From Reclinomonas americana ATCC 50394 (taxonomy: Eukaryota), in NCBI GenBank assembly GCA_048213135.1, contig PS015037.1, positions 102,000 to 145,407 on the forward strand: a stretch of 43,408 nucleotides of DNA. Direction: 5' to 3'. Below, piece after piece: positions 77 through 42,652 of this stretch (position 1 is its first letter; each line of letters opens with the position of its first letter). The notes below the pieces were generated by a model. The model worked only from the letters and a program-made list of their open reading frames with translations, made no database searches and was not told where the DNA came from. A program made the position numbers and the translations under genes.

Positions 77-3000
77 TTAGGCCCAAACCATCGTGTCGGT
101 GACAAAGTGAATAACATTCGTAAAGTAGCTGAAGGCGAAGAATCGCTCAATGAGCGGGAACACGATGAGCAGCTTCAGCGGTTCGTTGATGAAAATGTCC
201 TCGGCCAGGCTGTGCAGGAAGGCGACACGCGCGCGGTTAGTGACAACAACACACACGCAAACGATGTTCGCCACCACGAGTTGAGACGCAACGCGACAAA
301 GGTCGATCCGAATACGACCTGATCGCTGGTGGTCTCTCGCAGCTGACCAATCGTCAGGATGGTCATGTATGACAAGAACGCACCAACGCCCCACGACAGC
401 GCGTACATCCAGTACACGGTGGTATACGGCAGCGAATACTGCTCGAGCCAGCGCTTGAAGCGATTCCACAGACCTGTACAAGCGCACGTACGGTGAGTTG
501 GACCACGCACGAGACACATAAAGCAGTCGTTATGAAAACGACGTACCTCGCTCTCCGCGTGGGGCGTATCCACTGTCGAGTGCCACCTTTGGGTCGGTGA
601 CAAATTTCTCGTTCATGTACACGTGGCGCTTGGTGCGCAAGTACGTGGCGGGGGCGTCGTAGACCACCAGCTGATGGCAGTCGCGGTAGCAGTTGTGCGA
701 GAGCGACAGTGCGTACAACGGCTGTCGCGCGCGGGAGAGATGAGTGGCATGCAGAACACGACGCAGTCATAAAGAGTGCACACCGGTGGAGCCTTGGCGT
801 TGCGCGTGTCATCCTCGGCCTCGCGCGCCTCATCATCCTCGCCACCGGCCAAGTCCACCATGGTCTCCAGGCGGCTAAAGGTGTCGGACGGAGGCTTCTC
901 GGTACACAGTTTCACACCAGACGAGGCGCCTTCGATGAACAGGCCAACTAACGACAGCACCATCACCGGTCGCTCTGTGGACGGCAGCGATGCACTCTTG
1001 TCGTCGGGTGTGTCGATCTGTGCCCCCCCGACAACATGTGATCAGTGAAAAGAGTGCGCGCGCAGAGGCGATGTTCGGTGTGTCGTACCTCGCGGTGCGC
1101 CAGCGTCACGTGGACGCCAGGTGGGGTGGGAATCACCAGCTCCTCAACGTCCTTGGTGGTGGCCTGCCCGCCAAACATGCGAGTGTTAGTGCGCTACGCA
1201 TATTGAAACTCGTACACAGGCCACGCCGCCTTTGCCATACTCACCAAGCCCTGCTCCACTTCGCGCTGCACGGCGCGCAAGTTGCGATCTCCACCACTCA
1301 TGAATTTCAGCGGGCACACAATCTGCACCGATCACGTCGTCAGACATCTATCTGCTCAGTCAACGATGCAATTGCTACGCAACAGCCTCGTGGCGCTTCT
1401 CGGAGCGCACTGTCAGCCGGCCAGTGTAGGTGCGAATGTTTGGAGGAATCTGCAGCGGCCGGTAAAATCCTGGGCGCAGCACAATGGTCGACGGCAGCAA
1501 CCCGTGCGGAGCAGATGCCATTAGTTCCTGCACACCAGTAGCGTGATGATGTCAGAAACAGAATGAAGCAACGCATATGGCAGAGAAGAAGCATCGTACC
1601 GCAAATGTTGGCTCCTTGTTGCTGTCGTCCGCCTCCTGCTTGGCGTTGTGTTCGTTGTCATCCTCGTCTGGCGCCAGATCCGGTCGTACATACGCCACAT
1701 GTGAGCTATCCAACACACCGCCAATCACTGGCGCGATTTTGTTGGCGCGCTGCTTGCTCATGACGGCTGCGCAGTGTGGATTTGCAAATCAGTACGGGCG
1801 AGGACACTGACAATAATGAAGAAAGTGTGCGTACCGACAGCGCCCTCAGAAGCTCGACGGGTCGACACGGCGACTGTGAGACGGGAAGCGGGGGTGTCAG
1901 AAGACGTCTGTCAACGCAAAACCATGTTTGTGAGGAGAATCGCTGTGTACCAATGGCTGCCTGTTCATACGACTCGTCCAAGTCCTCGGCCTGACCGCCG
2001 TCAGAGAAGACGTCCACATCGACGCCAGCCTCGTCCTCGACTACGACTCCGTCGTGCACCACGAAACCAGGCAACGCCGCACCCGGCGCCTGTGCACAGC
2101 AACGATCGCCAAGGTGAGTGTCACAAATACTTGGAGGTGAAGAAAACTTGCTGCGCACCTCTGGTGAGCCGACCATAAAGATTTCCTAGATGACACGGAG
2201 GTCAGTGTCACAAGCACGAACTCAGAATGGCGTAGCACGCAAGCGAGCGAGCGTACCCTCGCTGTCAGTGCCACACTGCGGCGGCGGGCTCCACCCTCAA
2301 CCACGATGCACGGCGGCGGCGGCATTTCGTCAGCAAGCAAGTCGCCACTTCCATCTGCACATTGCAGACACGTTGTAAGTATTCTCCTCCTCACCAGACA
2401 ATGCGAGAGAAACCGACGAAACTCTGACCGGCACCACGCTGCGCAAATAGATGATGCAGTGGTGTCAGCTGTGCGTGCAGCGGAGAAACACACATAGCAC
2501 ACACACAGAGTCGAACCTCAAACGGTGGCGGCAGCGGATTGGGTGAGTGCATCGAAGCAGATCTGGCCACTGCGTGCACAAGAGACAATGGTTGAGAAAC
2601 CAATGCCGTGCAGACAGCACTACTTGCTTCCAATGCATCGCAACTGATTGCACCGAGTCGCTGTCATGCAGACGGCAACATGGAATTCAATCGTAAGTAA
2701 CAGGATGATCACAACTACAAGAGCAGTGCTGACGACGCAACGTTTGCAGGAACTGCAAAAGGCTCGTCTGTGTCACGAACAGAGAGAGCACTTCCGAGTT
2801 AGCATGACGACAAAGTGCAGGATCACAGCGACACCGCGTACCACCAGAAGCGGGTGGCAGAGCAGCCACGTTTTCTACGGTGAAAAAGACAATAACGTGT
2901 GAGGAAGCCATGATCAAACAGGCAAGGCTGCTCGCTCTTGTTGCACTCACGAGAAGTGTTGATTCCGACCACTGCGCCTGTGGTCCAAGCACCCTGTCGC

Positions 3001-5251
3001 AGATAAATGTACGTTAGGACACGAGGATCCGACAACGGCACCCGCGGTAGAAAGACCTTGTTGGCGGACGCACTGGCTTGGAGTGGCTTGTACTCGGCTG
3101 CGTGTGGCACACTTGTTGTCAGTATATCATGTGCGTTGCGACGCGCACACACGACCGCCGTACTCACCGGGGGCAATCGACTCGGTCAGCTTCGCATACA
3201 GCATCTTGATGCGTTGTGCTTCACCGTGCTCCAGCCACGTGTCACGCAGTGGAACGCGAGGCGTGAGACGGAATGGGATGCTGATGAGGAAGGCCGCAGG
3301 AATGATCATCAAGCCTGGCAAAAAGAGGGTTGGTGATGCGCATGCCACATGTGCAAGGCTTGCGGCAAATAAAAACACTCAACCAACGACGAGGCCAATC
3401 CACAAGTCTTGCACAATCGACGTGGCCACGCTAACTTGCATCTGATTGACAAGCACGGCGTGCATGTACAGCACACCAATCGTGGCCAACCAAAGCACCT
3501 GCAAAGTGAAGAATGAGAAACCATTGACACAAAGTCTTCACCATGTGACACGCAACAGTGAGTCGCTGTGTGCGACGGTAGCGTTCCCAAGGTCCGGCAG
3601 TCACCACCGACACCCACGTGTGCTGTGTGGCCAGTCGCTGCGCCATGCGAGTGCCCATTTTGAAGACACTCTGTCGACGCCGATTCAACTCAATGACCTT
3701 GGACACAACAGCTGCAAGCGATCGTAGTGAGCGAGAAGGAGAAGGGCCTGTGCGATTCGAGAGGAATACACGTGTCGGGCAAACCTTTGAACTTGGCCAG
3801 CGCCTCGACGTGCCGTCGCAGCTTCTCCTCCAGCACACTGCCTTCTGTGGCCAGCTCACTCGCTGCCTCAGTGGCCTCATCCTCAGTCATGGTGGGGCAC
3901 GAACTGATGGTGGAGGCCATGAGGCCGCGGTTCGGACGCAGCGCCGATTCGGTGAGTGCCTGTCCGGGTGAGCGCAAAAAGTTGCCTTGCCGTTCGGCAG
4001 GCACCGAGAGTGACGATGGAAGCTCCAGTCGCGGTTGCTGTGAGGAGCGGTGAGCTGATGCGGCCACCTTCTTTATGGCAGTCTGTGTGCTCTCACTTAC
4101 CGAGGGTGGCAGATTGGCAGCGAGAAGCTGTGATCCGGCGCGGTCAAACTGCACGCCCAAACGCACACATTATCACCAGGAAGACTACTGACAGCACGTG
4201 AAACTCGAAATGCACGCAACGGATGCCGACAGAATTCTGCCGAGTACCAACTTGGGTGGTGGCTGCACGTGTTTCTCCTTTAGTCAACAAGAGGACAGAC
4301 AGACAGACAGACAGCAAGCAAGCTGGGTTGACGCACCTCGGCAACCTCAGTCGACACCATGCTGCTCGACTCGGACGACAGACTGTCCGAGTGGGCCGTG
4401 CCGAGCGAGTCGGTCGGGGTGGAGCATCCGGCCGAGAACGACTGCGATCGCTGTCGGCGCGGGCCGCGGCGAGGCGGAGTCATTCTCGACGCCGAATCGG
4501 CGTTTGACGACTGCTGCGTGAACGACTGACGTGGCGCGTAAGCACATCAGGCGGGACAGAGTAGTGTGTGCAAGAACTGGTGATCTCACCGGTGATGCAA
4601 ATGGTCTGTCGCCATCAAGTATGGTGGGAACCACCGTATTCGATCGCGTGTGTGGCAGATCAGGCGACACTCGCGACAGCGCACGACTGAGTGACAATCG
4701 AGCGACTCGGTCAGTCACCATGGCCAGCGAAAGAAACGATGAAATAGGGGGACGAATCGCGATGCACTCACCCCAACGCTCGCGGAAGCGCAGCAGTGGG
4801 CAAGTCGGCAGAGACGTTGCGACGGTGACGAGATCGGTCGCGATCGGGAGACAAGGCGTGCCCGCGGTGCTTGGGTGCCATGCGTGAGGAGGCGCGCGGA
4901 CGCACAGGAACTGATGCATATTGCGGCTGCTGCTGTTGCTGTTGCTGCTGTTGCTGCGCTTGTGAGTCGACAACCGCTTGATCAGGCCTGGAGGCTATTG
5001 CCAATGTAGAGCCCTTGGCCAGGAATTGCGACGCATCCCTGCGCGTGCGTGGCGTGAGACACAACGCCGCCTCTCCTCTGTAAGAGTGGGCGAATGAGCG
5101 ATGAACCTGGCAAGGAATCCCTCCGGCAGCAGCTGAACCGCCGGTGCATTGCACGCCGTACGTCGTGCCAACACCTCCTTCACCAGGTCCGCAAAGCGGA
5201 AAATACCGCGGAACATGGGCAATTCGACCTCAGTCTGCACGTACGTGTCAG
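77..5251 (-). CDS. 3' (membrane/cytoplasmic) part of the polycystin-1-like gene: long low-complexity loop, PKD1-type TM2, TM3, TM4, TM5, stop TAA at 77-79
   Basis: Spliced HTWVSVVTAGPWERYRRTQRLT|VLWLATIGVLYMHAVL resembles the PKD1 pre-TM2/TM2 motif (H-x-W-x-S...F-T-R-x-Q-R). WIGLVVG|LMIIPAAFLISIPFR is TM3-like, YWMYALSWGVGAFLSYMTIL is TM4-like, and STFVA|LAEDIFINEPLKLLIV matches the PKD1 TM5 EPLKVL motif. Exons in 1000-3000 and 4200-5250 are only partly resolved. The join to the 5' part crosses gap 5252-5874. Confidence 0.75.
4925..4957 (-). repeat. CAG/CAA trinucleotide run (poly-Q in the cytoplasmic loop of the PKD1-like gene)
   Basis: ctg/ttg run on + reads QAQQQQQQQQQPQ on - in ORF 4768-5154. 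Confidence 0.6.
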
Positions 5252-5874: not shown

Positions 5875-8800
5875 CGACGACGACGACGACGACGACGACA
5901 GTGGTGAGTTGGACGCGCCAAGAGACAGTACAAGAGGGGCTGCGCACGCACCACACTGAGCCGAGGCCGTCGGTGATGATGACACCAATCGTGAGCATGT
6001 AATCGGGCGTCGCGCCGCTCTCCAGCTTGCGCACAATCCACGGGTTGACCGACGTGCCGAGGGCCACCTGCCGTCAAGCGAAAGGTCAGCTCACGAGGGC
6101 ACAAAACAGACCACATAGAACACAAAACAGACCATCGTCTGCGTAGAAGGCCGGATGTAGTAGAACGAGTAGCGCACTGGTGCGTCAATGTCGACACCAA
6201 TGGGCGACGTGATGTTGAAGTTGGTCACTCGGGCGGTGCCGTTGATTGGCAGCACACCAACGGCGCCGCTTAGGGTCGGCACAGTGTTTGTCGTCACTGT
6301 CATTGACGACGATACTGTGGACAGCATACGCTGGTCAACAACGAGAGAAAAAAACACGACACATGAGAGAGTGCAAGTGCTCGAAACTGGTATCCCATCC
6401 AGCAACAGTGACATTGGCATGGAACGTGTACGTCTTGCCAGGCGAGAGGACGCCAGGCAGCGGGCGCAGTCCGGTGGTCTTGCCGTCACTATTGTACACA
6501 AACGAGAGGTTTTCGTTGGGCACGCGACGGCCAAGATCGTCTGCGCACGAAACAATGGCGGTGAGTTCATCCGACCATTTTTCAGCCAGTGGCAGCTGCA
6601 CCTGCACACCTTCCATCCACAACGAGTACGAGGCTTGCGACGCCTGCAAGTCAGTCAGCGTCGAGTTGAAGGCCACTTGCACGGCGTTGGGTGTCAGTGT
6701 GTCAATGCGTGGTGAGCCGCCAACTTGTGGCTGTGATAATCATCATGAGCAACAAGCACAACACGGGCAAAAAAAGAACTCGGTGTACAAAAAGAAGACG
6801 CGCTCACCATGTCGAGAAGCAACGAAAATGCTGATCCATACTCCAAACTCGTGGCTCCACTGGCAGAGCGGCGACCGCGTTGTACTGTCACCGAGAAAGT
6901 ATAGCGACCGCTCACCATCTGTTCCGCCGGCACATTGAACACACTGCTGGTTGCCAATGCCGGCAACGGGAATGGACACGAGGTGGGCGATTGAGTGGGT
7001 GAGCTGAAAGAGCACTGCCACGTGTAGAACGTGGTCAGCGTCGCCACCCAGGAGTGGCTGGCACTGGGGTCGGCAACAAACGCCTCCAGCACAACCGATC
7101 GACCGGCGGCCACAGTGCCACCACCCGCTATCGACACCTCCAGTGGGCGGAACACTGATCAGAAGAAAAGGAAGACACAAAGTGAGAAATGTGATATGCT
7201 GGGAGAGAGATGTGCCTCGCGTGCGCGCCCTCCACTAACCGTGCACATCGACCTCCCAGCCGTATCCCTGGGTGATGGAGTCACTGGAGAAGCGCAATCC
7301 AAACGACGAACCTGCGGTCACATGCAAATCAGTCCAACGTTCAAGCTGCCACCGATATCCTCATAACACGACTGGCATGTAACGCAACCAACAGACAACT
7401 CCATCTGAATCGCATCGCTGGACAGCGACGCTGCCGAACCCGAGTACTGCTTGATGAGGCTAGTGATCGAAAAGGTGTTGTCGCTGTACAGCGACAAAAT
7501 ATCCTTGCCCAACTCCGTGTCCAGACGACGAACGTGGAAGTACATGCTTTGTGCAACGGTGGGCGCAGGAGAGATCTGTCAATCCAGATTCAGTGAGTCG
7601 CTCACTCGCATTCTTGCCAGATGCGACAGGAGGGAATCGCAAATGAGTGCTCACCAGCAGCGACCAGCTGCAGTTCAAGTTGGCCGAGTATCCAGTCATG
7701 CCGTCACTGCCGTCATTGATAATGTTTGTAGTACCGTGTGCCACTTGCAAATCTGTGCGACCAGAGCACGTCGGAGTCGCACCGACTGTACCACAACAAA
7801 AGAATGAATGAGCAACGGCGGCACATGTAATAATAACGCGCGTAGACGACAAGCGTACCGATGGTCAATTGTGCCGTGCCGACTTTGGCGTAAACCGGCG
7901 ACACTCGGAAGTGTGAATGGCACACAGAGTAGACGCTGCCGAGCACCGGCGCCGCGTCCACCATGACCACCAGCTGCGACGTTGTCGACAGCGAAGTCTG
8001 CATGGTGGTGGTGAGGCGACCTGCGCCAGTACCTGTCGTCGTGCACGTGTTGCCGGGTTCCAGAGTGACATTGTTGACGGCGTTCAAAAACGTGCCGCTA
8101 ATCGTCAGCAAGCTCGACCGGACGTTGGCCACCAATGTGCCCGGCGAGAAACTCGTCGTGTTGAGGCCCACATACAGACGGCCAGTCAGGTAGTAGGCGT
8201 TTGTGGTGGCACCAACACTCGGCTTCTGGCACAAGTAGTACACGCCGCTGGGGATGGCACCAGTGGTGACAGTCAGCACCGTCGTACTAAGGCCTGTGAT
8301 GGAGCTGGGAGCGGCCGGGACGACGCTCGAGCCGGCAACGAGCGTCCACTGGTTGCACGATGTCGAGGACAGGATGAAGGCCGCAGAATCAGTGGTGAGA
8401 TTGGGTGTCGAGCAGCCTGACAGCGTAACCGTCGTCGGACTGGTAGACGGCTGCACAATGTTCGGGGACAGCGCGTACATCTCTGCGCGAGTACGGATGT
8501 GTGTGTGAGGGAGAGGGAGTAAGCAAGCAAACGCTGCGTGCTTACCATTGATTCCGGCGAAACGAATGCGGTTGTTGCCCTGTGAAAGTGTGTATGTTTC
8601 AGTCCACTTTTCGCGCAATGCACTCCCATCGCACTACAGCCAGACGACGCACCCAGTCCATCACAAGGGCGCCTCCATTCTCTCGCAGGACAAAGCCGCG
8701 AATACTCTGGAATCTCGAAAGAATGGCTGAGGCGTCGGTGGAGCCCGCAGCAGTCGCGCCAGCGAATGGTCCCATGGCACCTGCGCGGTCACATTGCAGA

Positions 8801-11800
8801 GTCGGCGGCGCATGCATGGAGGAGACTCACGGCTGTTTTGCGAGGTTCGCTCACCAAAGTTGTTGCCGATCATGACGCGGCGATCGGTGGTAACGAAAAC
8901 GTCGGAGTCGGGGTTGCGAGACCACACCACCAGTGGATTGCCACTGGAATTCGTGATGCCTTTGCCCGCTGTTTGCGCGACCGTTCCGCTAAGTGCGTAC
9001 GGATACACAGTTCCTGTGTGGAAATAGGCCCAAGGGTGAGAAGCGGGTAGTGTGCCACGCACGAAAAAAGGCACCAATATAGCACAGATGCGCACCGCTC
9101 ATGTCCACATAGCGAACAAATGCGTTTGGTGCATTGCCATTGTCGGCAACAATCAGCCGATTGCCGGTGACGGCGCGCACGAATATCATCTGAGAAATGT
9201 TCACAAACGCTGCCACACTGACGCGACCGACTTGACTGCTGCCGGTGGCCTGGCCAACAAAGGCACTCAGTTGCCCTGTTCATGCATCACCTCACATAGA
9301 TCAGTAACAAGGCGAACAGAGGGGAAGCCTCTCAAGAGCTGAGCGCGTACCTGTGGTCATGTCGAACTTGCGGATGCGAATGCTTTTCTGCTCAGCAAAT
9401 ACGCACACATGGCGCGTGCAATGAGAGCCACGCTACATAGCGCCTACGAAGATAGCAGTGCACGCAACATCGGAGACGTAGAGGACGTTGGATCGCTCGT
9501 CTAGCGCCACCGCAGTCGGAGTGGTCAATTGTGCGACGGCCGCCGAGCCAAGAGTAGTACCGGCGACACCATTGCCGACAATTGTGCTCACCATGCCTGA
9601 AACGCGCACCAAGGTGAGAGACACTTATGTACTTGCAGAAGGGCGTGCCCAGCTCATCGCACGCACCGAGAGCGGTCATCTTGCGGATCGAGTGATTCTG
9701 CGAGTCGGCAATGTACATGGCGTCGGTTGAATCAATGGCCAGCTGCTGTGGCTGATTGAACTGAGCCAGCGAGCGATCGCCATCGGCGCGACCGGCGACA
9801 CCAGTGCCAGCAAAAGTGGACACGCGACCATCAAAGGTGATGCCGCGGATCACGTGATTCAGTGAGTCGGAAACAAAGACGTAGCCGTCGGAAGCTTCCA
9901 CCATGCTGGCCGGCGTGTTGAACGCGGCGGCCGTGAGTAGTCCATCTGTGTAGCCACTGGCGCCAGTGCCTCCAATGGTGCACACGTTCGGGAGCGGTGC
10001 TGCGTGCATCGGTAAAATGTGTCGTCGTCAGCAAGGAGAGAAGAGAGCGCAACAAAAGTATACGTGACGCAACAGATTTGGAACGCGCCCACGTCAATGT
10101 ATGGAAGACCCGGTGACCAGCGGACACACAGGCGCCCAGCAGAGGTGCCTGTTGGCGAGCCACGAATCCAGAAGGCGACGTCTTGCGGTGAGCGCCACAA
10201 CGAGTAGAGGGTGCTGTACATCGAGGCCAGTGGCCAGCTGGCGTCGAGAGTCGGGGCCAGTGCGGATGGGGTGCTGCACGAGGCGGCGAGCACCAATGCG
10301 TAGTTGGTCTGCAAGTCGTTGAAGAGATCGGGCAGACCCGCGCCGGTCAGGCGCAGCGTAAAGTACGAGGTTACGCTCTGCAGCAAGCGATAAGGGGAGA
10401 CAACGCCGGTCACCACGGCTGCACACCACAAATCACTGGATGAGTGCACTGAGGAGAGAGCGACTGTCGTCGACAGACAGATTTGCGTCGCCACACGAAC
10501 CGATGCGGAACACAAAGGCGAACTGATACTGCCACGAGGAGTTCCAACGAACGCACAACGTGTAACTTCCACCGGCGGCACCAAGTGCATTGATTGTCAG
10601 CGTCATGGAAGTTGAGCTGGTGAATGTGCTGCTGACACTGGTGTTGGGGACGGGAGTTGGCGAGACGCAGGTGGTTGAGGAGATGAGGAACGCTTGCGAG
10701 TCGCCCGAGACATTCGACATGCCAAGGCCAGTGACGGTGGACGAGACGCCGTTGATGGGCTGCATCGCCGACACTGACATGGTCGCAATCGTACCTGCGC
10801 AGGCGGCAACAACAGTGGGATTGGTGCTCGCTCGCAACAACAATGACCGCGCTCGCACGTACCACCAATGCCGATGATGCGAATGGCGTTGTTGCTCTCG
10901 TCGGCGACAAATACAGAACCTTTCGACCAGTATGCCGACGATATCATGCTGGCGGGTTGGTTGAAACGAGCCGTGGCGGCCGCGCCATCAACATTGCCTC
11001 CGGCACCCGACAGACCAGCGAGTGTCGTCACCACGCCTGCACACAAACACCGACACAGGGGGGTGAATTCTTTTCCCGAAAAAAAGCGCGCACAGGCGAC
11101 GGAGACATGCGTACCGTTGGGACCGGGCGAGAGCACACGAATGAGATTGTCGGAGAGGCTGCTGATGAGAATCTCGCCACCAATGCCGCGTGCGAGACGA
11201 TTCAGCTGGCCGAACGTGGCAGTTGTCAGCGCGGCGCCGTCGGTGTTGCCCACACCACCAGTGCCGGCAATAGTTGTCACCAGGCCTGATGAATGAATGA
11301 ATGAACAAAGCGTGAATCAAACCGGTAAAATGCATGAAACTCAAGTGTGCAACGTACCGGCAGTAAGGTCCAGCATGCGGATGCGGTTGTTTCCCGAATC
11401 CGCCACCGCCACAGTGTAGTCTGTCAGCGACACGATTCCGCAGGGTGCGTTAAACTTGGCCGACAGCAGCGGGCCGTCGAGGTAGCCTGACATGCCAGAC
11501 GTCTGACCGGCCAGCGTCGTCGTGTCGGCAGTGATCACGTCGACGTAGCGAATGACGTTGTTGCCCTGCGGCACGGGCAAGGACGGTCGGCACGGAACGC
11601 ACGCACGTAGTCAAGTGACGATGACGATGACGGAGCAACGTACCGAGTCGGCGACCAATAGATTGCGCAGTCGGTCGAATGCAAGTGCCAGTGGACCGGC
11701 AAAGCGAGTGAATCCTCCGTTCAGATCGAGGTAGCCGGTCGTGCTTGTCGACGCGCCGCCAAGAGTGTCCGTGTACACTGCACGTGGTGCGTGAGTTATA

Positions 11801-14800
11801 ACTGGCAAGCAGGAGACGCAGACAGAGGCAGCGTGGCACTCACTCGTATTCAAATCAAGTCGACGAACACGATTCTGCATTGCACACAGACAACGTGAGC
11901 TGACACACACAAAGAAGTGCGACTAACGAACGACGCACCGCCTCAGCAATGTAGAGAATGTTAATGTCTGGATTGTAAGCCACGTCCGTCGGCGAGCGGA
12001 ACTTGGCATTGGCGACGAGCGGGGTGGTGGGATCGTGCAGCTCGTTGAAAACATCACCGATGGTGCCAAACTGTCCCGCCACGTACATCAGAGTGCCGGC
12101 CATGTTCACTCGGCCAGCGCCCTGACCGCCACGCATCGACACCCACATGTCGCCTTGCGACAGCTCAGTGAGCCCAATGTACCCAGCGGCTGCAGTGGTG
12201 ACCACTGTACCGACGTTGGCCGCTCCTGTGCACACACAATGTGAGATGTGTGCCATGACAAGACCGCGTATGGCGACAGCACGAGAGACACACACCGACA
12301 AAGAGCGCCGACGCGGCAGCATACGGCGACGACGCACTCCAGCGAACACAGAGGAAGTATTGGCCCGCAGTGAGACCGGAGCTGTTGACCACCAGCTGCA
12401 GCGTCGACGTGTTGAGTAGCGACTGCACAGCGACACTGCTGGCGCCAGCCGGCGTCGGCACTGCATTCTGGCACGTGGACGCAGCCGTGACGAGAACGAC
12501 CGACGAGGTATCGCCCGACACATCCACGAGACCGCTACCGACCAAGCGGACCGATTGCGCAGAGCCGGCAACAATGGTCATTGGCGTGGCTTCGGCGTAC
12601 GCTGCACGATGTGTTCGAATGTAAGTCGATGGAAGAAAAAAGAGATTAGCAAACTCACTGACACGTACCAATGTTGAGGTAGCCGAGCTCACGGTGGCCG
12701 CTCGTGGTGGACCAGCGACCGCACAAACGATACACGCCACTGGCGGCACCGGCGGCATTCACTGCCAGCGTGATGGAAGTGGTCGACACCAATGTCGACG
12801 TGATGGACACACCGCTAATCCCCGACGGCGAGACACATGTGCCGGAGGAGCTGATGAGAAGGAAGGCCCGAGTATCTGTGGAGACGTCCACAAGGCCACA
12901 GCCGACAAGCGTCACCGTCTGTGCAGCGGCCGCAGCTATCGCGGGTGGACTGACAAACATGACGCCGGGTCCCGCAGAGACGTAGCGAATGCGGTGATTG
13001 TTCAGCTCGGTGACAAGCACGTTGGCGTCGGGTCGGACAGCGACGCCAGATGGACCATTGAACTTGGCCACATCGGCGTTTCCGTCGGCGAATCCCGCCG
13101 TTCCCGAACCGGCATATGTGTCCACCGTGCCCGATCCTGCGGGAGACACCAATGTCAGCGAGCAAGAAACGCTGATGGTCGTACGAGCGTCGACGTAAAC
13201 GTACCGACGGACAAAGCACGGCGCAGCTTGTGGTTGCCCTGTGGGAGAGAAGGTGAGGGAGCGGGAGAAGGGCAAAGAGGGGACAAAGAGTGAGGGCGCA
13301 ACAGAGTCGGCGATGAAAATGTGTCCGCTCGGCGCCACGGCGATGCCGAGGGGCGACGAGAAGCGAGCCGACAACGGCACGCCATTTGTGCTTCCCGGCG
13401 TTCCTGCCGCACCGGCAAACACAGAGATTTCACCTGCATGCAGGAAGGGAGACGATTCAGTGCATTGCACGGAGGCTCAACGACCAGTCGAAGCGTTTTT
13501 CTTTCGCAACTGTTGCCGTAATTGATTCGGCGGAGGGTGTGACCGCTGCTTTCGGCGACAAGCAGCGTCATGGGATTCGAGGACAACCAAGCGAGACCGC
13601 TGGGACCATTGATCGACCCAGGCAGTGCGCCGTCCGTGGTGGCTCCTGCTCCGTTACCGGCAACAGTGGAGACAGTTCGTGCCGTAATGTTGAGGCGCCG
13701 CAGTCGGTGCGACGGCTGTGCAATCAGTATCAGCAGCTACCCACACAGCATCTCGACTAAAAGAGAATGCGAGGAAGGAAACGCACTGTGCCGTCGGAGA
13801 TGAGGAGAGCAGTGGCCGCCGATGTCTCCAGCACGATAAAGGTCGGGCGCTGGAACGTGGCCGATGTCGCGGCACCGTCGGTGGTGCCGGCGGCGCCAGT
13901 GCCCGCAATCGTCGACACGTAACCCACCAGCAGTTGAATGACACGAATCACACGACCAGAGGCCTCCGACACATACAGGAGACTGTTGGTTTCATCGAGT
14001 GCCAGACCCCACGGCTCATTAAAGGTGGCCGCGGTAAGGAAACCGTCGGTGGAACTGGCAGCGCCGCCAGCCAGTGTTGCCACTGTGCCGCTGTTGTTGA
14101 TTGTGCGAATTCTGTGGCTTCCCTGTGCGCGCAAAGGTTTGAGGATGGAAGAGAAAGCGCGAGGATGCACAGAAGACGGCCTCACGTACCGAGTCGGCCA
14201 CATACATCATGCCCGTGCTGGCCGAGATGACAATGGAGGTGGGCGTGTTGAACGACGCACTCTGCGCACTCCCGTTGGCGGTGCCCGCAGTGCCGATACC
14301 AGCCAGCGTGCACACAGCGAGTTGCTCTGTGCAAAAACAAACAGTCAACACAAACAAACTCATCATGCAGCAGCAGGTGGTGGCTCACCAATCGTCAGAG
14401 CACCAACGTCAACGTACGGACTGTTGGGTGACCAGCGCGCGCACAAGCGATACGAAGCACGCGACGCGCTGCTGGCGCTCACCGACAGCAGCAACGACGA
14501 CGACCCCTGGTACTTGGTCGTGATGGTGATGCTCGACTGCACGAACGAGCTGCGAGCGCGCACGTGCATGTGTGAGAAAGAGAGAGAGAAAGTAACGGGA
14601 GACGATGCGTGAGCATGGCAATCCTCACCACGACGAGGTGCCGAGCACAAAGGCGTTCTGCTGTTGCGACACGTCGGGCAGGCCGACGCCCGAGAGCACC
14701 ACCGGCTGCGTGTCCACAGCCAGCACCGTGCTGGGGCTAATCGAGGTCACCGAAGCCACGNNNNNNNNNNNNNNNNNNNNNNNNNNNNNNNNNNNNNNNN

Positions 14801-18957: not shown

Positions 18958-19048
18958 ATGGAGGTAGACAGCAATGGGCCTCGTCGCGTGGCCATTTACT
19001 CCATGTGGCGAGTACCCGGCAGTGGCGCTCGTTGCGTCTCCACACGCG

Positions 19049-19082
<34 letters not shown>

Positions 19083-23113: not shown

Positions 23114-23151
<38 letters not shown>

Positions 23152-26918: not shown

Positions 26919-26954
<36 letters not shown>

Positions 26955-28293: not shown

Positions 28294-29840
28294 TTAACGC
28301 ACCTCCATTAACCGGCGGGCCATTTTGGCTTCCTCCAGCGAGGGCACGCGCAGCACAAAGGTGTCGGGCTTGAGGACCAGACTGCTCGTGTGCAGGCCGT
28401 CCTCGCTGCAGTGTGAGCTGTCGCTTGAGGACCACATGATGGACTCGTCAATGGTCACGGCCTGGTCGCTGGTGTGTCGTGGTCGCTGCCGCTGCAAGGC
28501 CGGCACCGGTGGGCTCATGCGGGCCGACGAGTACTGTGGTCCAGCGCGAGTAACGGCAGCACCGTCGCCATCATCGTAAACGTCGTCATCGTCGTCGTCG
28601 TCGCGATGAAGTGTGACGGCTGAGTTGATTCGCCTCGGCGGCCGCCGTGTGTACTCGGGCGGAGGTGGCAAGCGTGGCGATGGCGTTGGTGCGCATCTGG
28701 CCGCAGCTGTTGCGCCGATGATGGGCGTCGACGGAGTCGTGCACGTGCTGGTGGCCGCGGAGCTGTCGTCCCCCCCGCCGTGTTCCACCAACGCCGTCAG
28801 TCGCGGGCTCTCCAGGTTGTCGCTGCAGCCCATGCTCATGGCCTTGACCATTACCAGACGCTCCACTTCGCGCATGCGAGTGCAATTCTCCCGTTCAACG
28901 TTGACCACTGGTGAGAGAGAGGGGGAGGGACAGTGTGAGTGCAAGTCAGTCGTCATGTTCGGGTTCTTCTTGTTGTTGCCCACGAAACATTCACGGCGAT
29001 ATCGAAGTTCCTCGCGCTGCCGCAGCCTGCGCTCCTCCCGCTGCAGCTCCCGCACGCGGTGGCCCGACGCACACACGCAGACGCACAGCAGCGGGAAGCA
29101 CAGCACACACAGCGTGTTCTCCAACCACACCGGTCCCGACGCCGGCACATCGCGATCACCAAACCCACTCTGCCTCCCATCAGTCCCCGGCACGCCCGGA
29201 GCCCTTCGCCACCTGCACCGCACCCAACAACAATGAGCACTGTACCACGAAAGCACGAGACGGAGATGGGACGCAACATTCCCCAACAGCAGAAGCGATC
29301 TGTGTGTCGAGGATGATAAGGTGAGCACGCGCGATCAGACATACCAAACAGGCGTCGCACACACATACCTTGCTCTCTGCTCGACAACACTGGAGGCACT
29401 GGATCAGGCATCAGTTCCAACTCAGGGTGCTCGGCCAACACACTGTCAACCAGCGAGTCCAACACAGACATCGGTGTCGCAGTCATTGTTGTTGTTGTCG
29501 CACGCATCATGATCGCCACCACAATGTCGTCGGGTGAGATAGCTGTGAAGCCACATTCGTCAGTGCTCGTGTGCATTCCCGAAGTGTGAGTTGAGTTGGA
29601 TTGGGAGGGAACAAAAAAAGGGAGAGTCAACGAGACACAGAGGGAGACAAGGCGCGATTCGTTCGTGCAAACGGTGAGTGGCACGTGACAGAGAGAGACA
29701 GGGGGGGGGAGCGAAGAGAATGGGTGTGTGTGAGGTGTGTGTGTGTGTGTGGTTTGGTGGATTGCGAGTGAGTGAGTTGGAGAGTGACGAGAGGAGACAC
29801 GAAGAAGAGAGATCCGCGCCAATGCGGTGGTTTCAGACAT
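28294..29840 (-). CDS. Hypothetical protein (short coiled coil plus disordered tail); exon structure partly unresolved
   Basis: Long last exon (NVERENCTRMREVERLVMVKAM...EEAKMARRLMEVR*), coiled-coil exon RVRELQREERRLRQREELRYR and upstream exon-like segment SVLDSLVDSVLAEHPELEL. No recognisable family. Confidence 0.5.
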
Positions 29841-31749: not shown

Positions 31750-32176
31750 TACGGCTGCTCTTCCGTGGGTTCCCGTCACCTCCTGCGTTGCGTGCCAGCT
31801 GCCACTCAATAATCAATAGCGAGCGTGGCGCTCACGTTTTGCGAATGCAGGCGTACCAAGCCGCCACTCACGCCTTTACGTGCGCCATGGGTGAGTATGA
31901 AGAATTGCTCGCATCTTGCATGGTCCCCTGCAAAGTAGCAGACTTAACATCTTCTGATTGGTATCCTACTCTCCCGTCGCCTCTCCCTTGTGTGTCGTCC
32001 CTACTTTGCCTGCATCCACAGAGAACAACTGGTCGACACGCCCACACATCATCTGGGGCTTCGATGTGGCCACCGGCAAAATCACCTTGTCCGGCGTGCC
32101 GGTGTCGCCTGGCATCCTCATCCCCCCGGTCACCGCGCCCTGGGCCGTGATCCCAAACTCGGTATGTGACATGTGA
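31750..32176 (+). CDS. 3' exons of an unidentified gene (5' part probably in gap 30819-31552 or at 30330-30800)
   Basis: Exons 31750-31786, 31851-31890 and 32022 onward join in frame (TAALPWVPVTSC|AYQAATHAFTCAME|NNWSTRPHIIWGFDVATGKITLSG...), with GC3-rich codons and good splice sites. Confidence 0.55.
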
Positions 32177-32455: not shown

Positions 32456-32978
32456 TCAGGGTGCATAGAGCGAGCGAGGCGACTTGCCGCCCTGGCGCTT
32501 CCACTGATGCTCCAACTTGCTGTCCTCCTCCTCGGCAAGCTCCCTGGCCAGGTGGTCGTCGTGTTGCACAATGCTGCGCGGCCGACGAGTGAGACACGAC
32601 AACAAACAAGGGAAATGAGGATTGAGCATCACGCACTACTCCCACAGAGAGGGGAACTGCGACCGAGTGATGCGGCTTCCAGTGGCAAATTCCTGCACCG
32701 CACTGGTGAGACCCATGCACGGAGAAACTTTCTCCTTCGAGACAAGCGAGACGCAACGCGAACAAGGTTTCCCAGTTGCTCTCGGCTCCAGCCAAGGGTG
32801 CGGCATTGCTCTGTGTGGCGAGTGAGTGCAAGACCACAATGTTATCGCGGGGAGGCAGTTTTCGAGAATCACGCAACCCGGCAGCTGCAACAGACGAGAA
32901 ACCGTGAGTATGATGAGGTGCAAGACTGCTGACGATCAGAATTGCTCACCTTGCTGACGTAGTACTTGTACAACTCAT
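32456..32978 (-). CDS. 3' exons of a small EF-hand-like protein (5' end beyond the satellite/gap)
   Basis: Exons 32950-32978, 32878-32884 (7 nt), 32758-32810, 32637-32692 and 32456-32573, separated by four 63-67 nt introns, give ELYKYYVSK|LPE|QCRTLGWSREQLGNLVR|EFATGSRITRSQFPSLWEY|IVQHDDHLARELAEEEDSKLE...*. The G-x-x-I-T-x-x-Q-F-x-x-L-W pattern resembles a degenerate EF-hand; family assignment is tentative. Confidence 0.65.
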
Positions 32979-36145: not shown

Positions 36146-39100
36146 ATGTCGTCGGCGGCGAGCTACGTCGTCTCATGGAGCTCACTCCACGACGCACTTG
36201 CGCCCGCGGATGGCGCCATTATGATCGCCGACGATGCGGCGGACGACAGCCTGGTGTTTGATGTCGAGGAAGAGGAGGAGGAGGAGGCAGCGGAAGAGCA
36301 CATCACACGCACGTTATGGGAGGCCGCGGATCGTGATCGTGTGGAGAGAGCGTTGCGCGTGGTCCGAGAGCAGGTGGCTGCGGCCGATGTGCTGCTACAG
36401 AGTTACACACTCCTATATCACGCTCCCTCTGTCTGTGTGTTCTCCACTGACACACACGCGCGTCTCTCTCTTAGCTGCGAGGTACCGCGAGTGTTTTGCT
36501 GTGTTGACGCGTCTGCTGCGGAGGCAATTGCCGCGGTGGGAGGATGCCGATGCGGGTGTGGCGAGAATGGAGGTGGAGACCATGAGTCATGCGTATGAGG
36601 GAGCGTGTCGTGTGGTGGTGCCGCTGCGCGAGGCGCTCTTGCGGCTGCGCATGGTGGGCGAGAGGTTGCGCGGAGATCTGTGGCGGTGGACCGGCAATTG
36701 TGAGCTGGCGGAGATGCAGCAGGTGCGTCCGTGTGCGAGGAGGCAGCAGTTGTCCGACGCGAGGTCGGTGCTTACGCGCGCACGCACTCGTGTAGAAGCG
36801 TACACTGGAGTGTGCCGTGCAGAGGCTGGGATTGCCGGAGGACGATGATCCGGATGTGATTGGCGTGCGGAGTGCGCTGGCGGATGCCATGTGGTCGCTT
36901 GGCAAGTACGATGAGGCCATGGTGCGTTTCGCTGCGGACCGCAGAGCGTGATCGTGTGGAGCTCACATGCGCGCTCGTACACAGCCAAAGCACCGACGGG
37001 TGCTGGAGTGTCGAGTGCGGGTGCTGGGGCGGGAGCACGATGCAACGCTTCTCACGCAGTACCACCTCGGAGTGTGCTATTTTTTCCGGGGCTTCGTGGA
37101 CGAGGCGCGTACGCTGCTGGAGAGTACGTTTGTCGAGCGTCGACGAACGAGCATGACCACGCGTGAGTCGTTGCAGGCGCTGCATGCGCTGGCCATGACG
37201 CTGCCACGTGGCTCCACCCGGGCGTTGCAGCTGCAGTCGGCGTGTACGCTGCTGAGGAGGCGTGTCCTCGGTCCGCGCCACCCCGACACACTGCGCTCGA
37301 TGAACAACATCTCGTTGGAGATGAGGGCCAGCAATCACTTGGCGGCGGCCGTGCGACTCAATCGCTACTGTCTGGCGGTGCGCGTGGCTGACATGGGTGA
37401 ACTGCACCACGACACTTGTTGCGTCCTCCCTATTTTTTTGCTTCCCTTCCCCTGTCCACTGTCACCTCACCTCCGCTCTCGTCGACCAGGTGCCTCGTTG
37501 CACAATCTGGCCGTGTGTCTGCACAGCATGGTGCCGCCGCAGGATGCCGACGCTGGACGCCTGCTGGCGGTGACCACCAAGCTGGCGGTGGATGTGATGG
37601 GAGGGACGCATCCGGAGGCCGAAAAGTCCGCCGCCGGTCTCAGTGTGGTGGAGACGTGCTTGCGCCGCCAAGCATATCCGCAGTTGGAGGCGATTCTGGA
37701 GGAGTACAAGGTCTTGGGGGAGCGCGTGGCTGCCGTACTGCAGGCACGGCATGCCATTCGTGAGTGCCAGATGGAGGAGAGGAGAATACGAGCGGCACTC
37801 CGCCATTTACGATTGGTGGCGGGGTCGGGAGGTGGGTGTTGTTGTTGACTACTCTCACAGCCTGTCGTCATCTCTCTCCTCCTCCTCCTCCTTCATCTCT
37901 TTGTTACTCCTGCTGCTGCTGCTGTTGTCGTTATCGCTGTTGTTGTTGTTGTTGCTTTTTGCGTCTTCTTCTCCCGTCCTCCGTGTTGTTCCTTCTGCTG
38001 CTGCTGCTGCTGAGGTTCTTGTTCTTGTTGTTGTTCGTGTTCTTATTCTTCGTCTCCATCTTCGTCTGCGTGCTCTTTTCCTTCGTCTCTTTGTCATTCC
38101 TGCTGCTGCTGTTGTAGTTGTCGTTGTCTCTGTTATTGTTGTTGCTTTCTGCGTCATCTTCTATTCCTTTTTCGCCTGCCGTGCTCTTCTTGTTATTCCT
38201 GCTGATGTTCTTGTTGTTATTGTTGCCAATCTTCATCTTCTGCTTGGGCGTCGACCACATTCATGTTGTCCCTCTCCACCACCGCCGCCTCCTCTAATTT
38301 TTCATCCTCCTCTCCTTCTTGTTCTCCTTCTTCTTCGTCTGCCGTCCTCTTCTTATCCTCCGTTGTTGTTGCTGTTGTTATTCTTCCTGTTGTCTTTCTC
38401 CTCATTCACCTCCTCCTTGTTTTCCTCCTCCTCCCCCTCTTCCTTGTTCTCCTTCTTCGTCTGCTCTTCTCCTTCGTCTCTTTGTTGTTCCTGCTGCTCA
38501 GCAGCTCTTGCTGTGCTCGCGTGTGGTTGTTGTAGTTGAATCTGTGTCCTTTTCTTCTCTTCACCACCGCCACCTCTATTTTTTCATCTTCCTCTCTTGT
38601 CCTCCTCCTCCTTGTTCTCCTTCTTCTTCGTCTGCCGTCCTCTTCTTATCCGCCGTTGTTGTTGCTGTTGTTATTCTTCCTGTCGTCTTTCTCCTCATTC
38701 ACCTCCTCCTTGTTTTCCTCCTCCTCCCCCTCTTCCTTGTTCTCCTTCTTCGTCTGCTCTTCTCATGCGTCTCTTTGTTGTTCCTGCTGCTGCTCTTGTT
38801 CGCGTGTGGTTGTTGTAGTTGAATCTGTGTCTTTTTCTTCTCTTCCCCTCCTCCTCCTCCCCCTCCTCCTCCCCTTCCTCCCCCTCCTCCTCCTCCTCCT
38901 TCTCCTCCTCCCCGCCCACCTTGCTCACCGCAAGCACCCCACAGAGGCTATGATCAACGACCTGGGCTTCATGAGTCTGGAGATTTGCGTGGAGCACACC
39001 TCATTAATGCGCCGGCGCAAGCAGGCAGTGGTGGACGCCCACAGCCCGCTGTCCCTCATCGCGACGGTGCCTGAGGGCGGAAGCCTTCCGGATGCCGCCA

Positions 39101-39314: not shown

Positions 39315-39318
39315 GACG

Positions 39319-39548: not shown

Positions 39549-39549
39549 G

Positions 39550-39854: not shown

Positions 39855-42652
39855 ATGCCACCAGTGAGCACTGCGCCCCTTCTCCCCATCTGTTCTCCCC
39901 CTTCCCCCGCGCTCACTCACACTCGCACACACATACACAGAAAGGGAAAAAGGGTGGCAAGAGCTCCGCAGCGGCCTCGTCAGTCTCCGGCGCAGGAGGT
40001 GGCGACGCAGCAGGCGCCGGCGAGTCCGTTGCGTCTCTCTCTCCTTCTCACTCCCTCTCTCTCTCTCACTCTCACTCACACATGCACACCACAAAACAGA
40101 TCGCCGACAAGGTGGAGGCCGCACGTCACGAACTCGAACAGCAGCGACAGATCATTGAGAGTCGACTGGCGGATGAGATGCGTGCGCGAAACTATGCACA
40201 GATGGAACGAGTTGCGTGCACACACACACACTCTTCCCACCTAACTCTCTCTCTCTCTCTCTCATCGCTCACCACCGCCCTTGTCTTGTTGCGCAGGATC
40301 AAGTGGCGACACTGTGGGTGACTGCACGACGCGACAAGGAGCGCTTGGAGCTGGAGATCGCCAAGACTGAGCATGGGGAGGAGTCGGCGGCGCAGCGGCA
40401 CTCGGCCGATGTGCGTGTGTTTCAGCAAAAGATCAAGGGTCTCTCGTATGAGCACCGTACGTTGTCGGAGCAGGCGTCGGAGCAGGCGTCGCGCATGTTG
40501 GGCGATGAGGTGTCGTCGCATAGGCTTCGTGTGCAGCGGATGAAGACGGATAGGTGTGTTTACGGGGAGAGAGAAGGATGGAGAGGAGAGGAGAGGATGC
40601 GGGGGAGAGGAGGGAGACAGGGAGATAGTGAAGGGGAGGAGGAGGGAGACAGGTTGTTGTCGCTCTTGCTCAGTTCACACCATTCACCCACACATCCACG
40701 CCAGCCCCCGATTGATGCAGTTCTTTGTAGCTGTGTTCTCTTCTCTCTTCGTGGCTTGCCTCACATATCACCTCCTCTCTCTTGTTCACATCTGCGATTT
40801 CTTGCTGTTCTGCGGGGGGTTTGTGGTTGTTTTCCTCTCCTCTCTCCTGGTTTCATGTCTGGCATGTGAACTGCTTCCCTTCATTTGTCGCTTCTCTTCC
40901 CCTCGTCGGTAGATGCCCACTGCTTTTCCCCACTTGTTGCACGCCTTGCTCATCGTCTGTGTTCATCCGTTGTAGAGGTACCCCATTGCTCTCCATCCCG
41001 CTCGTTCCATCCCCTGTAGTGGCTGTGTTTCTGTCTCCCTCCGCATGACTGCATTATCACTGTCCACGCAATTGTTATTGTTACTTCCTTCTCGTCTGCT
41101 CTTCGTGTTCCACTCACCCTCTGTTCTTGTCGACATCCTGTTCGTTGTCTCTCACCATTGAGTGCTCGTTATGACTCCTTCTCCCTCTCGCCTTCCCCCT
41201 TTTCCTCTTCCCCGTTTCTCACTTTCTCCCTCCCAGACAACTGGCCTACCGCGAGAATCTGGAGAGCAAGATGAAGCACGAGAAGGAGATCCAAAAGCTG
41301 ATCAAGAAGCACCTGGCGGCCGTGGAGCTCACGGAGCGCGAGCTGAAGGACCGTCTGACCAATCTGGAGGCCGCCTACAAGAAACAGCTCGAAAAGGTGC
41401 CGTGTCGCTCCTCCCACTCTCGTGCACAAGCACGCGTGCTCACACTGTTGCAGACTCGCCGTTTCCTCGACCTCCGTCGGCGCGCCGAGGTGCACCAGAT
41501 GAACGAGCACAAGAACTCGCACATTTTCACGATGATTGAGAGCCACAAGAAGGCGTTCGAGAACACGCGTCAGTACTACAACGAGGTGTTGGCGGTCAAC
41601 TTGGACATTGTGGCGCAGTTTAAGGACGAGTTGGCCGAGATGCGGTGCGTGGAATCCCTTTCGTGTGTCAAGAGGAGACACTCACACCTTTTTTACATCC
41701 GAGCGCAGCTCTCGCAACCTTGAGAAGAACGAAATGATTACGGAGATTGGTCGTGAGAATCTGAAGCTGAAGCCGCCGCTGCAGCGCGCAACGGAGGAGA
41801 AGCAAATGTTGATGGAGGCGCTGCAGGATGTTGCGTTGCTGCACACAGAGAGGCACATATATGTTGCTCACTTTTTGTGGTCGGTGTGCAGCGCGAGAAA
41901 GACACAGAGACGGGCCGCATGGTGCACGCGTCGCTGCAGAGGGCCGAGCAGGAGATGAGCGCGCTGCAGGAGGACTTGGCAGAGCTGCGTGGTAAACTGG
42001 ATCAAACCGAGCGTGAGCGCAACTCGTTCGCCGAGCGCATCATGAACATTCACGAGGAGCAGTCGAGCTCTGCGGCCATGCGCAACAGCGCGCTGGAGGT
42101 GAGTGTCTGCTCCACCCATCCGCTCTCCGTGATAGCGTTATTTTGGCTGACTTGTGACGTGCAGCTCGCCATTCAGCGGAGAGAGCAGGAGATTGTCACC
42201 CGCGAGGCGCAGATTCAGCAGGTGGTGCGCGAGTACCAGATCCACCCAGACGTCATGCAGAGTGTGGGCCAACGAGTACGTCCCGTTTGTCTTGCTTATG
42301 ATCGACTCAAGTGGTCTCACGCTCTTTCCCCGTACGCATAGTTGGAGGACGCTCTCGACGAGCAGACGGCACTGATCGACCAGCTGGAGTTCGAGGTGGC
42401 CAAAGTCGCCAAGGTCGGTTTTCTCTCTTGTGGCGTCGTTGTGATTTTCTGCGCCTGACGCACACACACTCTCTCTCTGCCACCTCAAAGGCGCGCGAGG
42501 ATGCCGTGCAAGTGTACCGCACCAAGCTGCTGGAGATGGGCGTGCCACCGTCCGACGTACCACCCCCCGACCCACTGTGGCCCGAGGACTACCCAATCCC
42601 CGATGTCATGTTCCGCACCACCAAGGCACCGGCTGGACTTGTCGTCGGCTGA
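39855..42652 (+). CDS. GAS8: Dynein regulatory complex subunit 4 (GAS8/trypanin family); 11 exons
   Basis: MPP|KGKKGGK start; EMRARNYAQMER|DQVATLW; RHSADVRVFQQKIKGLSYEH; LDLRRRAEVHQMNEHKNSHIFTMIESHKKAFENTRQYYNEVLAVNLDIV; ENLKLKPPLQRA; C-terminal PAGLV. All are hallmark GAS8 segments, joined in frame by 10 GT-AG introns. Confidence 0.92.

Follow-up and report, generated by a model that had tools for sequence, protein, structure and literature searches.

The question raised by this locus is whether the introns of one nuclear genome can be cut routinely at two kinds of 5′ splice site. The stretch of DNA analysed here, called the window below, is 43.4 kb of Reclinomonas americana ATCC 50394 (contig PS015037.1). 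It is eukaryotic nuclear DNA of 55% G+C, with seven runs of N and very many short introns. Many of these introns start with GTTGCG, mostly in the form GTTGCGT, and others start with donors such as GTGCGT. The initial annotation had listed 25 GTTGCG introns whose removal restores frame or homology, and had proposed a register-shifted donor used as a routine class. All the results described here come from this one window, and splicing is deduced from homology and reading frame.

The motif was examined first as a string. GTTGCG is present on the expected strand at 25 of the 25 listed sites, and at all four sites offered as further candidates. Among the 25, the heptamer is GTTGCGT at 22 sites, GTTGCGC at two (13302 and 21561) and GTTGCGA at one (13510). 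On both strands of the window GTTGCGT occurs 30 times, whereas 100 dinucleotide-preserving shuffles gave 9.90 +/- 3.22 copies with a largest count of 17, so the heptamer is enriched about threefold. GTGCGT is present in 84 copies, against 50.3 +/- 7.1 in the shuffled sequences. The final gene model described below uses 23 of the 30 GTTGCGT copies as donors; two others (292 and 43249) are plausible donors, three may belong to introns in untranslated regions, and two (2741 and 18593, both on the minus strand) are unexplained. The last two fit no intron, and 18593 is antisense to a RING-finger gene.

Introns were modelled with a gene finder based on dynamic programming, which uses codon or Markov coding scores, a matrix for the acceptor and branch site, and limits on intron length. 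In the donor-agnostic runs, the donor was required to be GT only. These runs are noisy and recovered 14-17 of the 21 introns verified by then; over all runs lacking a two-class donor model the range is 13-17. GTTGCG was the commonest donor hexamer both times, with 14 of 121 donors in one run (14 of the 21 verified introns recovered) and 18 of 144 in the other (15 of 21). A two-class donor model recovered 19 of the 21 verified introns and predicted 131 introns. The final set of 115 introns was obtained from these by removing the N-containing introns and two artefactual models beside gaps. The donor hexamers among the 115 include GTTGCG (26), GTGCGT (15), GTGAGC (9), GTACGT (7), GTGCGC (5) and GTGAGT (5), and position +7 is T in 23 of the 26 GTTGCG donors. 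No GTTGAG or GTTAAG donor is modelled among the 115, and the sole modelled GTTACG donor belongs to one of the introns removed for containing N.

If positions +3 to +6 were independent, 0.96 GTTGCG donors would be expected among the 115 introns, whereas 26 are observed (binomial p=1.8e-29). The excess over independent positions, the lack of which the initial annotation had named as counting against the class, is present. In the genes checked by outside homology, GTTGCG stands at the start of 12 of 38 introns. GTTGCG donors make up about a fifth to a third (20-30%) of the introns here, and the earlier estimate of about a quarter agrees with both counts (12/38 homology-checked, 26/115 modelled). 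In an acceptor-score test, the best downstream acceptor score of GTTGCGT sites mostly ranked between the 70th and the 99th percentile of GT sites overall; this is a poor control in such intron-dense sequence, and the result was not used.

According to their support, the 25 listed donors fall into 12 in four genes aligned with homologues, four supported by NHL repeats, six supported by frame only, and three (17283, 19031 and 31787) without coding support. In the four homology-aligned genes, GTTGCG starts 5 of 11 introns of D-LDH, 3 of 10 introns of GAS8/DRC4, and four introns of two peptidase-C45-like paralogues. The spliced models reproduce the D-LDH and GAS8 counts given before.

The D-LDH gene is modelled on the minus strand from 28124 to 25134, with 12 exons and a 567-residue product. 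The homologues were fetched with one exon, and the exon matches reach only 62-64% identity. In the alignment with nine homologues (from Pyropia, Porphyra, Sphaeroforma, bacteria and unnamed organisms), no indel is found at the 11 junctions. The donors are GTTTTTC, GTTGCGT (five times), GTGCGA, GTTTGCG, GTTCGTA, GTGCGT and GTGAGT, and intron length is 53-81 nucleotides (nt), with a single exception of 737 nt. The GTTGCGT introns are as follows.

27393..27473, minus strand: D-LDH intron 2, 81 nt, GTTGCGT at 27473; LFLGV|DPAPGA is joined with no indel against the nine homologues.
26576..27312, minus strand: D-LDH intron 3, 737 nt, GTTGCGT at 27312; RYGTM|KHQV is gap-free against the homologues.
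26036..26097, minus strand: D-LDH intron 6, 62 nt, GTTGCGT at 26097; placed by the homologue alignment, with branch motif CTCAC.
25911..25974, minus strand: D-LDH intron 7, 64 nt, GTTGCGT at 25974; placed by the homologue alignment, with branch motif CTGAC.
25473..25537, minus strand: D-LDH intron 10, 65 nt, GTTGCGT at 25537; placed by the homologue alignment, and the A after the AG makes the boundaries unambiguous.

The GAS8/DRC4 gene is modelled on the plus strand at 39855-42652, with 11 exons and a complete open reading frame of 495 residues. GTTGCGT is the donor of the following three of its ten introns.

40028..40099, plus strand: GAS8/DRC4 intron 2, 72 nt, GTTGCGT; it lies in the low-complexity N-terminus outside the homologue alignment and is placed by continuity of the reading frame alone.
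40211..40296, plus strand: GAS8/DRC4 intron 3, 86 nt, GTTGCGT; exon 4 starts at residue 57 of human DRC4 (PDB 8j07, E=8.4e-6), and the reading frame is continuous.
41830..41891, plus strand: GAS8/DRC4 intron 7, 62 nt, GTTGCGT; the Pfam GAS profile is unbroken across exons 6, 7 and 8.

In the Pfam GAS profile, the end of exon 6 corresponds to position 38 and residue 2 of exon 8 to position 81. The 41 residues between them cover positions 39-79 exactly. The profile therefore runs unbroken through exons 6-7-8, and the donor at 41830 is fixed. A comparison of GAS8 exon 3 with PDB gave nothing usable, and a word-indexed protein search with a GAS8 exon gave no match.

The two peptidase-C45-like genes (isopenicillin-N acyltransferase-like) are tandem paralogues on the plus strand, at 20334-22073 and 22673-25020. 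Intron positions are common to both, and so are two micro-exons, conserved and 14-16 nt long (WHPRI / N(N/D)TVYW), which the alignment reproduces exactly. An assembly gap of 20 N interrupts each copy (20762-20781 and 24186-24205), so that neither gene is complete. An exhaustive HMMER search, for which one exon served as the query, found 208 relatives, some of them full-length proteins with 440-470 residues. When both models are aligned with six full-length homologues, no gap falls at the junctions 21216, 21561, 23286 and 23597.

21216..21284, plus strand: intron of C45-like paralogue 1, 69 nt, GTTGCGT; GVPFV|YLLRNILQF is contiguous in six homologues.
21561..21640, plus strand: intron of C45-like paralogue 1 after the 14-nt micro-exon, 80 nt, GTTGCGC; WHPRI|NNTVYW|GMDW shows no indel against the homologues.
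23286..23355, plus strand: intron of C45-like paralogue 2, 70 nt, GTTGCGT; HVWGDFYS|MGYAYG aligns to HVWGSPYDWGFAHG and others.
23597..23658, plus strand: intron of C45-like paralogue 2, 62 nt, GTTGCGT; LDVALDALW|EVTKAYTP is gap-free against the homologues.

All 12 GTTGCG introns of the homology-checked genes start with GT and end with AG. In six of the 12, a base other than G follows the acceptor AG, and the frame permits |GT...AG| boundaries only. Therefore a slide of one base is impossible, and the intron starts at the G of GTTGCGT. By alignment and frame, the cut is shown to be immediately before this G.

Internal evidence is given by the NHL-repeat gene, which lies on the minus strand from about 16536 to 4768 and has about 40 exons in the model. 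Its NHL repeats alternate with Ig/IPT-like modules, and a weak CUB-like region is also present. A protein search with one of its exons gave matches of 29-41% identity, and the few with a named organism are bacterial. From one repeat unit to the next the introns keep the same place, and junctions can be compared within the gene.

10000..10073, minus strand: NHL-repeat intron, 74 nt, GTTGCGT; the junction ...YIDVGAFQI| coincides with ...YVDVGALTI| of the intron at 14388 (GTGAGC), with an alignment score of 123.
13239..13302, minus strand: NHL-repeat intron, 64 nt, GTTGCGC; positions 1-20 of the Pfam NHL profile end exactly at 13303, the exon end.
13434..13510, minus strand: NHL-repeat intron, 77 nt, GTTGCGA; its position matches the repeat-unit junction of the intron at 11357 (GTACGT), with no gaps nearby.
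9388..9468, minus strand: NHL-repeat intron with weaker support, 81 nt, GTTGCGT; LYVSD|KSIRIRKF fits the NHL motif.
7312..7388, minus strand: intron in the CUB-like region of the gene, 77 nt, GTTGCGT; frame-consistent only, the Pfam CUB match on the neighbouring exon having just E=0.094.

At the ‘ADS|G’ junction of the NHL repeats, the donor is GTTGCGC at 13302, GTACGT at 14189 and 11643, and GTGAGC at 15511. Equivalent junctions carry a variant donor in one repeat and an ordinary donor in another, and therefore the two classes replace one another there. The Ser codon at this junction is TCG before GTGAGC and GTACGT, and TCT before GTTGCGC. At 9388-9393 (minus strand) the acceptor is a tandem GAGCAG, and splicing to the AG located 3 nt upstream would add one residue, with a better fit to the NHL spacing.

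Apart from the donor, GTTGCG introns resemble the other introns. The median length is 71 nt for GTTGCG introns and 69 nt for the others (p=0.52), and the GTTGCG introns span only 58-86 nt apart from the one of 737 nt. The branch motif [CT]T[CG]A[CT] is found in 21 of 26 GTTGCG introns and in 74 of the 89 remaining ones, CTCAC and CTGAC being the commonest forms in either class, and the acceptor is the same. U12-type introns have the donor /RTATCCTT and the branch site TCCTTAAC. This type was rejected; no donor among the 131 modelled is of this form, and the GTTGCG class has the CTCAC/CTGAC branch motif of the other introns. Stwintron-like nested donors were also considered and rejected. On the sequence evidence, GTTGCG(T) is a genuine second 5′ splice site class of major-type (U2-type) GT-AG introns in this organism.

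The exon base before the cut distinguishes the two classes. In the homology-checked genes, exon position -1 is G in 1 of 12 GTTGCG donors and in 20 of 26 ordinary donors (p=9.8e-5). In the full model, it is G in 3 of 26 and in 70 of 89, respectively (p=6.5e-10). The loss of the exon-final G in GTTGCG donors is a new regularity that bears on the mechanism. The -1 base distribution of GTTGCG donors is like that of position -2 of ordinary donors (p=0.45) and unlike that of their position -1 (p=1e-10). Written as octamers, the ordinary donor is Y-G|G-U-G-C-G-U and the variant is Y|G-U-U-G-C-G-U; the third letter is changed from G to U, and the cut is one base earlier. Over all donors, -1G is present in 62 of 73 with G at +5, and in 4 of 30 that lack G+5 and have G at +6, the latter including three GTTTCG donors.

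These GTTTCG donors (19392 and 24406, plus strand; 6387, minus strand) have no -1G and carry G at +6, and could be degenerate forms belonging to the same shifted class. The donor at 24406 in C45-like paralogue 2, GTTTCGC, occupies the same intron position as GTTGCGC at 21561 in paralogue 1. GTTTGCG and GTTTGCC donors (introns 26265-26328, 14820-14896 and 3712-3784, all minus strand) seem by eye to have two extra T. They keep -1G and have G at +5, and so behave like donors of the ordinary register, not like a two-base shift.

A known human case suggests how such donors could be read. According to passages of a paper on human splice sites that discusses Roca & Krainer 2009 (PMC4856993), GUUAAGU-like human donors are read by shifted U1 pairing, and the intron G+1 pairs where the exon -1G normally does. 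The trait expected of a shifted register is that the -1G preference is lost and the exon positions are displaced by one, and the GTTGCG class shows this trait. We give a probability of roughly 50% to the explanation that a one-base-shifted recognition register, used as a routine class, accounts for the GTTGCG(T) donors.

In this shifted register, the U1 small nuclear ribonucleoprotein would bind ordinary and variant octamers in the same way. In the variant, intron G+1 would stand in for the final G of the exon, leaving U+2 as the single mismatch. U6, U5 and Prp8 would then place the cut at the sole available GU, which lies one base 5′ of the U1 register. For pairing with the ACAGA box of U6, the conserved G and U would be located at +6/+7 instead of +5/+6, and the extra base U+3 would have to be looped out. 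Under any model, the U6 stage would need to accommodate one extra base between the catalytic GU and the ACAGA-pairing G/U. The variant motif is near-invariant whereas the ordinary donors are degenerate, and we propose that this is because the obligatory mismatch demands a perfect rest of the helix.

Several points weigh against the shifted register. The universal U1 5′ end (AUACUUACCUG, PMC4856993) forms no stable duplex with GUUGCGU in any register in RNAduplex calculations (+0.5 kcal/mol, versus -5.9 for GUGCGU). The commonest -1 base of GTTGCG donors is T (12/26), which is not predicted by standard U1 pairing in the shifted register. The 26/115 share and the full-model -1G counts are partly circular, in that the donor model was given the class and the columns -3 to -1, and the homology set is small (38 introns).

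The absence of a duplex with the universal U1 means that the shifted model works energetically only with a differing U1 or with mostly protein-borne binding. A hypothetical U1 end ...ACGCAC..., in which G-C replaces the two pseudouridines, gave -13.8 kcal/mol with GUGCGU and -6.2 with GUUGCGU via the UGCGU block (RNAduplex). Both donor classes have a GC-rich block (ACGCA) in common, and the U1 5′ end may have been adjusted to it. The calculations would thus call for either a retuned U1, protein-carried recognition, or a second U1.

The last of these leads to a different explanation, in which two flavours of U1 (and perhaps of U6) exist. A variant U1 with ...ACGCAAC... would pair directly with GUUGCGU in the ordinary register, and the other U1 would serve the GTGCGT-type donors. 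The near-invariant heptamer (+7 T in 23/26) is expected from full complementarity, and the universal U1 5′ end yields no predicted duplex with GUUGCGU. The mostly-T base at -1 (12/26) could pair with a further base of the variant U1, and variant small nuclear RNAs (snRNAs) are reported to be expressed in human cells (PMC8457000). We nevertheless consider two U1 flavours unlikely. The resemblance of the variant -1 position to the ordinary -2 position is a prediction of a single shifted U1 and would otherwise be a coincidence, and the branch site, acceptor and length are identical between the classes. No snRNA gene was found within the window at the Rfam gathering thresholds; Rfam gave no match at all, despite the presence of two transfer RNA (tRNA) genes detected by ARAGORN. 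The exon -1 result by itself does not separate one U1 from two.

Another possibility is a bulged register, corresponding to the human ‘bulge +2/+3’, in which U1 (and U6) would pair with G+1, U+2 and then GCGU, with one U (+2/+3) flipped out. This register is experimentally proven in human cells, and together with the asymmetric-loop registers it resembles the present case in having one extra nucleotide between GU and the downstream G/U (Roca et al. 2012; Tan et al. 2016; passages of PMC4856993). The cut is not displaced relative to U1 in such a register, and some bulge at the U6 stage is needed under any model. A bulge, on the other hand, keeps the last exon base facing the same U1 base (the pair of exon -1G with U1 C9), so the -1G preference (20/26) should persist, whereas G is found in 1/12 of the class; this expectation is derived from the register and is not a direct pairing test. 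For this reason the shift is favoured over the bulge. RNAduplex with the universal U1 finds no bulged duplex either, and in human just 54 curated sites are of the bulge +2/+3 type (PMC4856993, in part). The bulged register is rather improbable. As regards the initial proposal of a routine register-shifted donor, the frequent class is confirmed, the shifted reading gains indirect support from the shift of the -1 base, and the simple bulge variant is argued against by the lost -1G.

In an all-against-all blastn comparison of the 115 end-trimmed introns, five hits were obtained, all of them low-complexity CT or CA tracts and none between two GTTGCG introns. GTTGCGT might instead be the legacy of one ancestral element, a family of introners (mobile introns) or some other repeat, and not a signal under selection. 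Fixed-end introner families are reported from some algae and fungi (PMC3879977 and PMC3609843), but such an origin is very improbable here, given this lack of similarity and short introns (58-86 nt, one of 737 nt) at positions conserved between paralogues and repeats. It is equally hard to believe that the class arises by chance or from annotation, with nearby GTs as the true donors or with pseudogenes: three donors (17283, 19031 and 31787) do lack coding support and two (3556 and 292) have in-frame alternatives, but the heptamer exceeds shuffles threefold, twelve junctions are fixed by homology, GTTGCG is the top hexamer of the GT-only finder, and the final set of 115 introns has 26 GTTGCG donors versus 0.96 expected under independence.

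Comparison with known systems indicates how unusual the shifted register would be as a routine class. Human shifted-U1 sites are similar in that the intron starts with GUU, the U1-complementary block is one base downstream, and the cut is still at the GU. They differ in being rare, whereas GTTGCG donors make up 20-30% of the window introns; the paired block is UAAGU there and UGCGU here, and the shifted register is proven in human cells. Validated noncanonical U1 registers account for about 1.5% of 201,541 human 5′ splice sites, according to a passage of PMC4856993. The splicing machinery here seems to read a donor displaced by one base as a matter of routine; elsewhere such reading is known just as a rarity.

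As for U6, passages of PMC11162779 describe cleavage as having "always occurred 5 nucleotides upstream" of the U6 G:C pair until a single human exception in 2024. In this exception, the tandem donor of STAT3 exon 21, the U6 register is displaced by one base in a single human donor. The likeness is that the conserved G-U, which pairs with U6 C42/A41, lies one base off its usual distance from the cut; the difference is that the displacement is towards the cut (G+4) in one alternative donor there, and away from it (+6) in a constitutive class here. It is possible, though not quite an even bet, that the spliceosome of this organism works routinely in two registers, with the GU six instead of five bases upstream of the U6-pairing G and the U1 helix displaced by one in a fifth to a third of the introns, and that this would be the first organism with a constitutive major noncanonical class.

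The ordinary donors of the window (GTGCGT 15 and GTGCGC 5 of 89) and the C-T-[CG]-A-C branch motif resemble those of two algae. Passages on Ostreococcus describe an atypical GTGCGTG donor consensus and an ACTGAC branch site (Irimia & Roy 2008, PMC2483917), and an atypical GTGCGTG-type donor is reported for Micromonas (PMC3879977). These algae are intron-poor, and the passages on Ostreococcus do not mention a class with an inserted T. Unlike Ostreococcus, the window is extremely intron-dense (11 introns per 1.6-kb coding sequence), and it encodes a flagellar protein. The idea that snRNAs changed to match the Ostreococcus donors is raised without testing in a passage of PMC2483917.

No paper describing a GTTGCG/GUUGCG donor class was found in open-access text with the literal string and splicing terms; a depiction as a sequence logo only would escape this search. 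A scan of metagenomes with the C45 exon alignment gave 70 loci of 32-63% identity over the best segment (45-58% in the 20 best), among which there is no close relative and no case of a GTTGCGT donor. The only GTGCGT-rich locus of the 70 is a contig of 4097 bases from an unrelated environmental eukaryote with a C45 homologue. It contains 17 GTGCGT in 4 kb, its introns are longer and have GTGCGT-type donors, and none of the three copies of GTTGCGT in it serves as a donor.

The distance from the cut to G+5 is regarded as almost fixed, and every fourth or so intron here would depart from it. If true, the shifted register would provide a natural system for the handover from U1 to U6 and for the slack tolerated by the catalytic centre. 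It would also provide one for the co-evolution of the snRNA 5′ end with the donor consensus, the idea raised for Ostreococcus (PMC2483917, in part). If the genome-wide picture and the snRNAs agree, it would be of interest to splicing specialists. In practice, a large share of the introns of this genome would be overlooked or wrongly placed by gene finders trained on one donor matrix.

The other listed donors with frame support are the following.

3499..3556, minus strand: intron of an unnamed gene, 58 nt, GTTGCGT; phase 0 on both sides and of typical length, with an in-frame alternative donor at 3604.
210..292, minus strand: intron of an unnamed membrane-protein gene, 83 nt, GTTGCGT; it joins ...VVFGSTFV to LAEDIFINEPL and has a branch-like CACTAAC, and the final model took 256 instead.
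32811..32877, minus strand: intron of a small unnamed gene, 67 nt, GTTGCGT; frame-consistent, with a CTCAC branch motif.
32693..32757, minus strand: intron of the same small gene, 65 nt, GTTGCGT; frame-consistent, with a CTCAC branch motif.
37418..37489, plus strand: intron of a TPR-repeat gene, 72 nt, GTTGCGT; frame-consistent, the upstream exon matches TPR_12 (E=1.3e-9), and the spliced ...GELHHDT-x-ASLHNLAVCL fits the repeat.

The three listed donors without coding support are possibly those of introns in 5′ untranslated regions.

17283..17382, plus strand: GTTGCGT upstream of or in the RING-finger gene; the acceptor is uncertain, there is no branch motif or homology, and the intron is unverified.
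19031..19111, plus strand: GTTGCGT, 81 nt to a CTGAC...CAG acceptor; all upstream frames stop within 50 codons, and the intron is unverified.
31787..31850, plus strand: GTTGCGT upstream of an ATG, 64 nt, CTCAC branch motif; it has intron-like signals only and is unverified.

Four more putative GTTGCGT donors are further candidates of the initial annotation or sites outside its list.

1323..1383, minus strand: further candidate, 61 nt, GTTGCGT; an intron in the donor-agnostic and final gene models.
4149..4220, minus strand: unlisted donor, 72 nt, GTTGCGT; final model only.
29213..29277, minus strand: unlisted donor, 65 nt, GTTGCGT; final model only.
43249..43399, plus strand: further candidate in the first exon of a gene at the window end, GTTGCGT; the frame MDRKRRIDLSEASG...GAGL is open up to the donor, and CTGAC/CTCAC and an AG are found near the window end.

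Microsatellites of the (GT)n and (CT)n types are common across the window. By eye, CT-rich low-complexity runs are present inside the two long introns 40554-41236 (plus strand, 683 nt) and 26576-27312 (minus strand, 737 nt). The two tRNA genes detected by ARAGORN are both tRNA-Val(CAC), at 39318-39392 and 39549-39623 on the minus strand, 231 bases apart and just upstream of GAS8, and their sequences are largely the same by eye.

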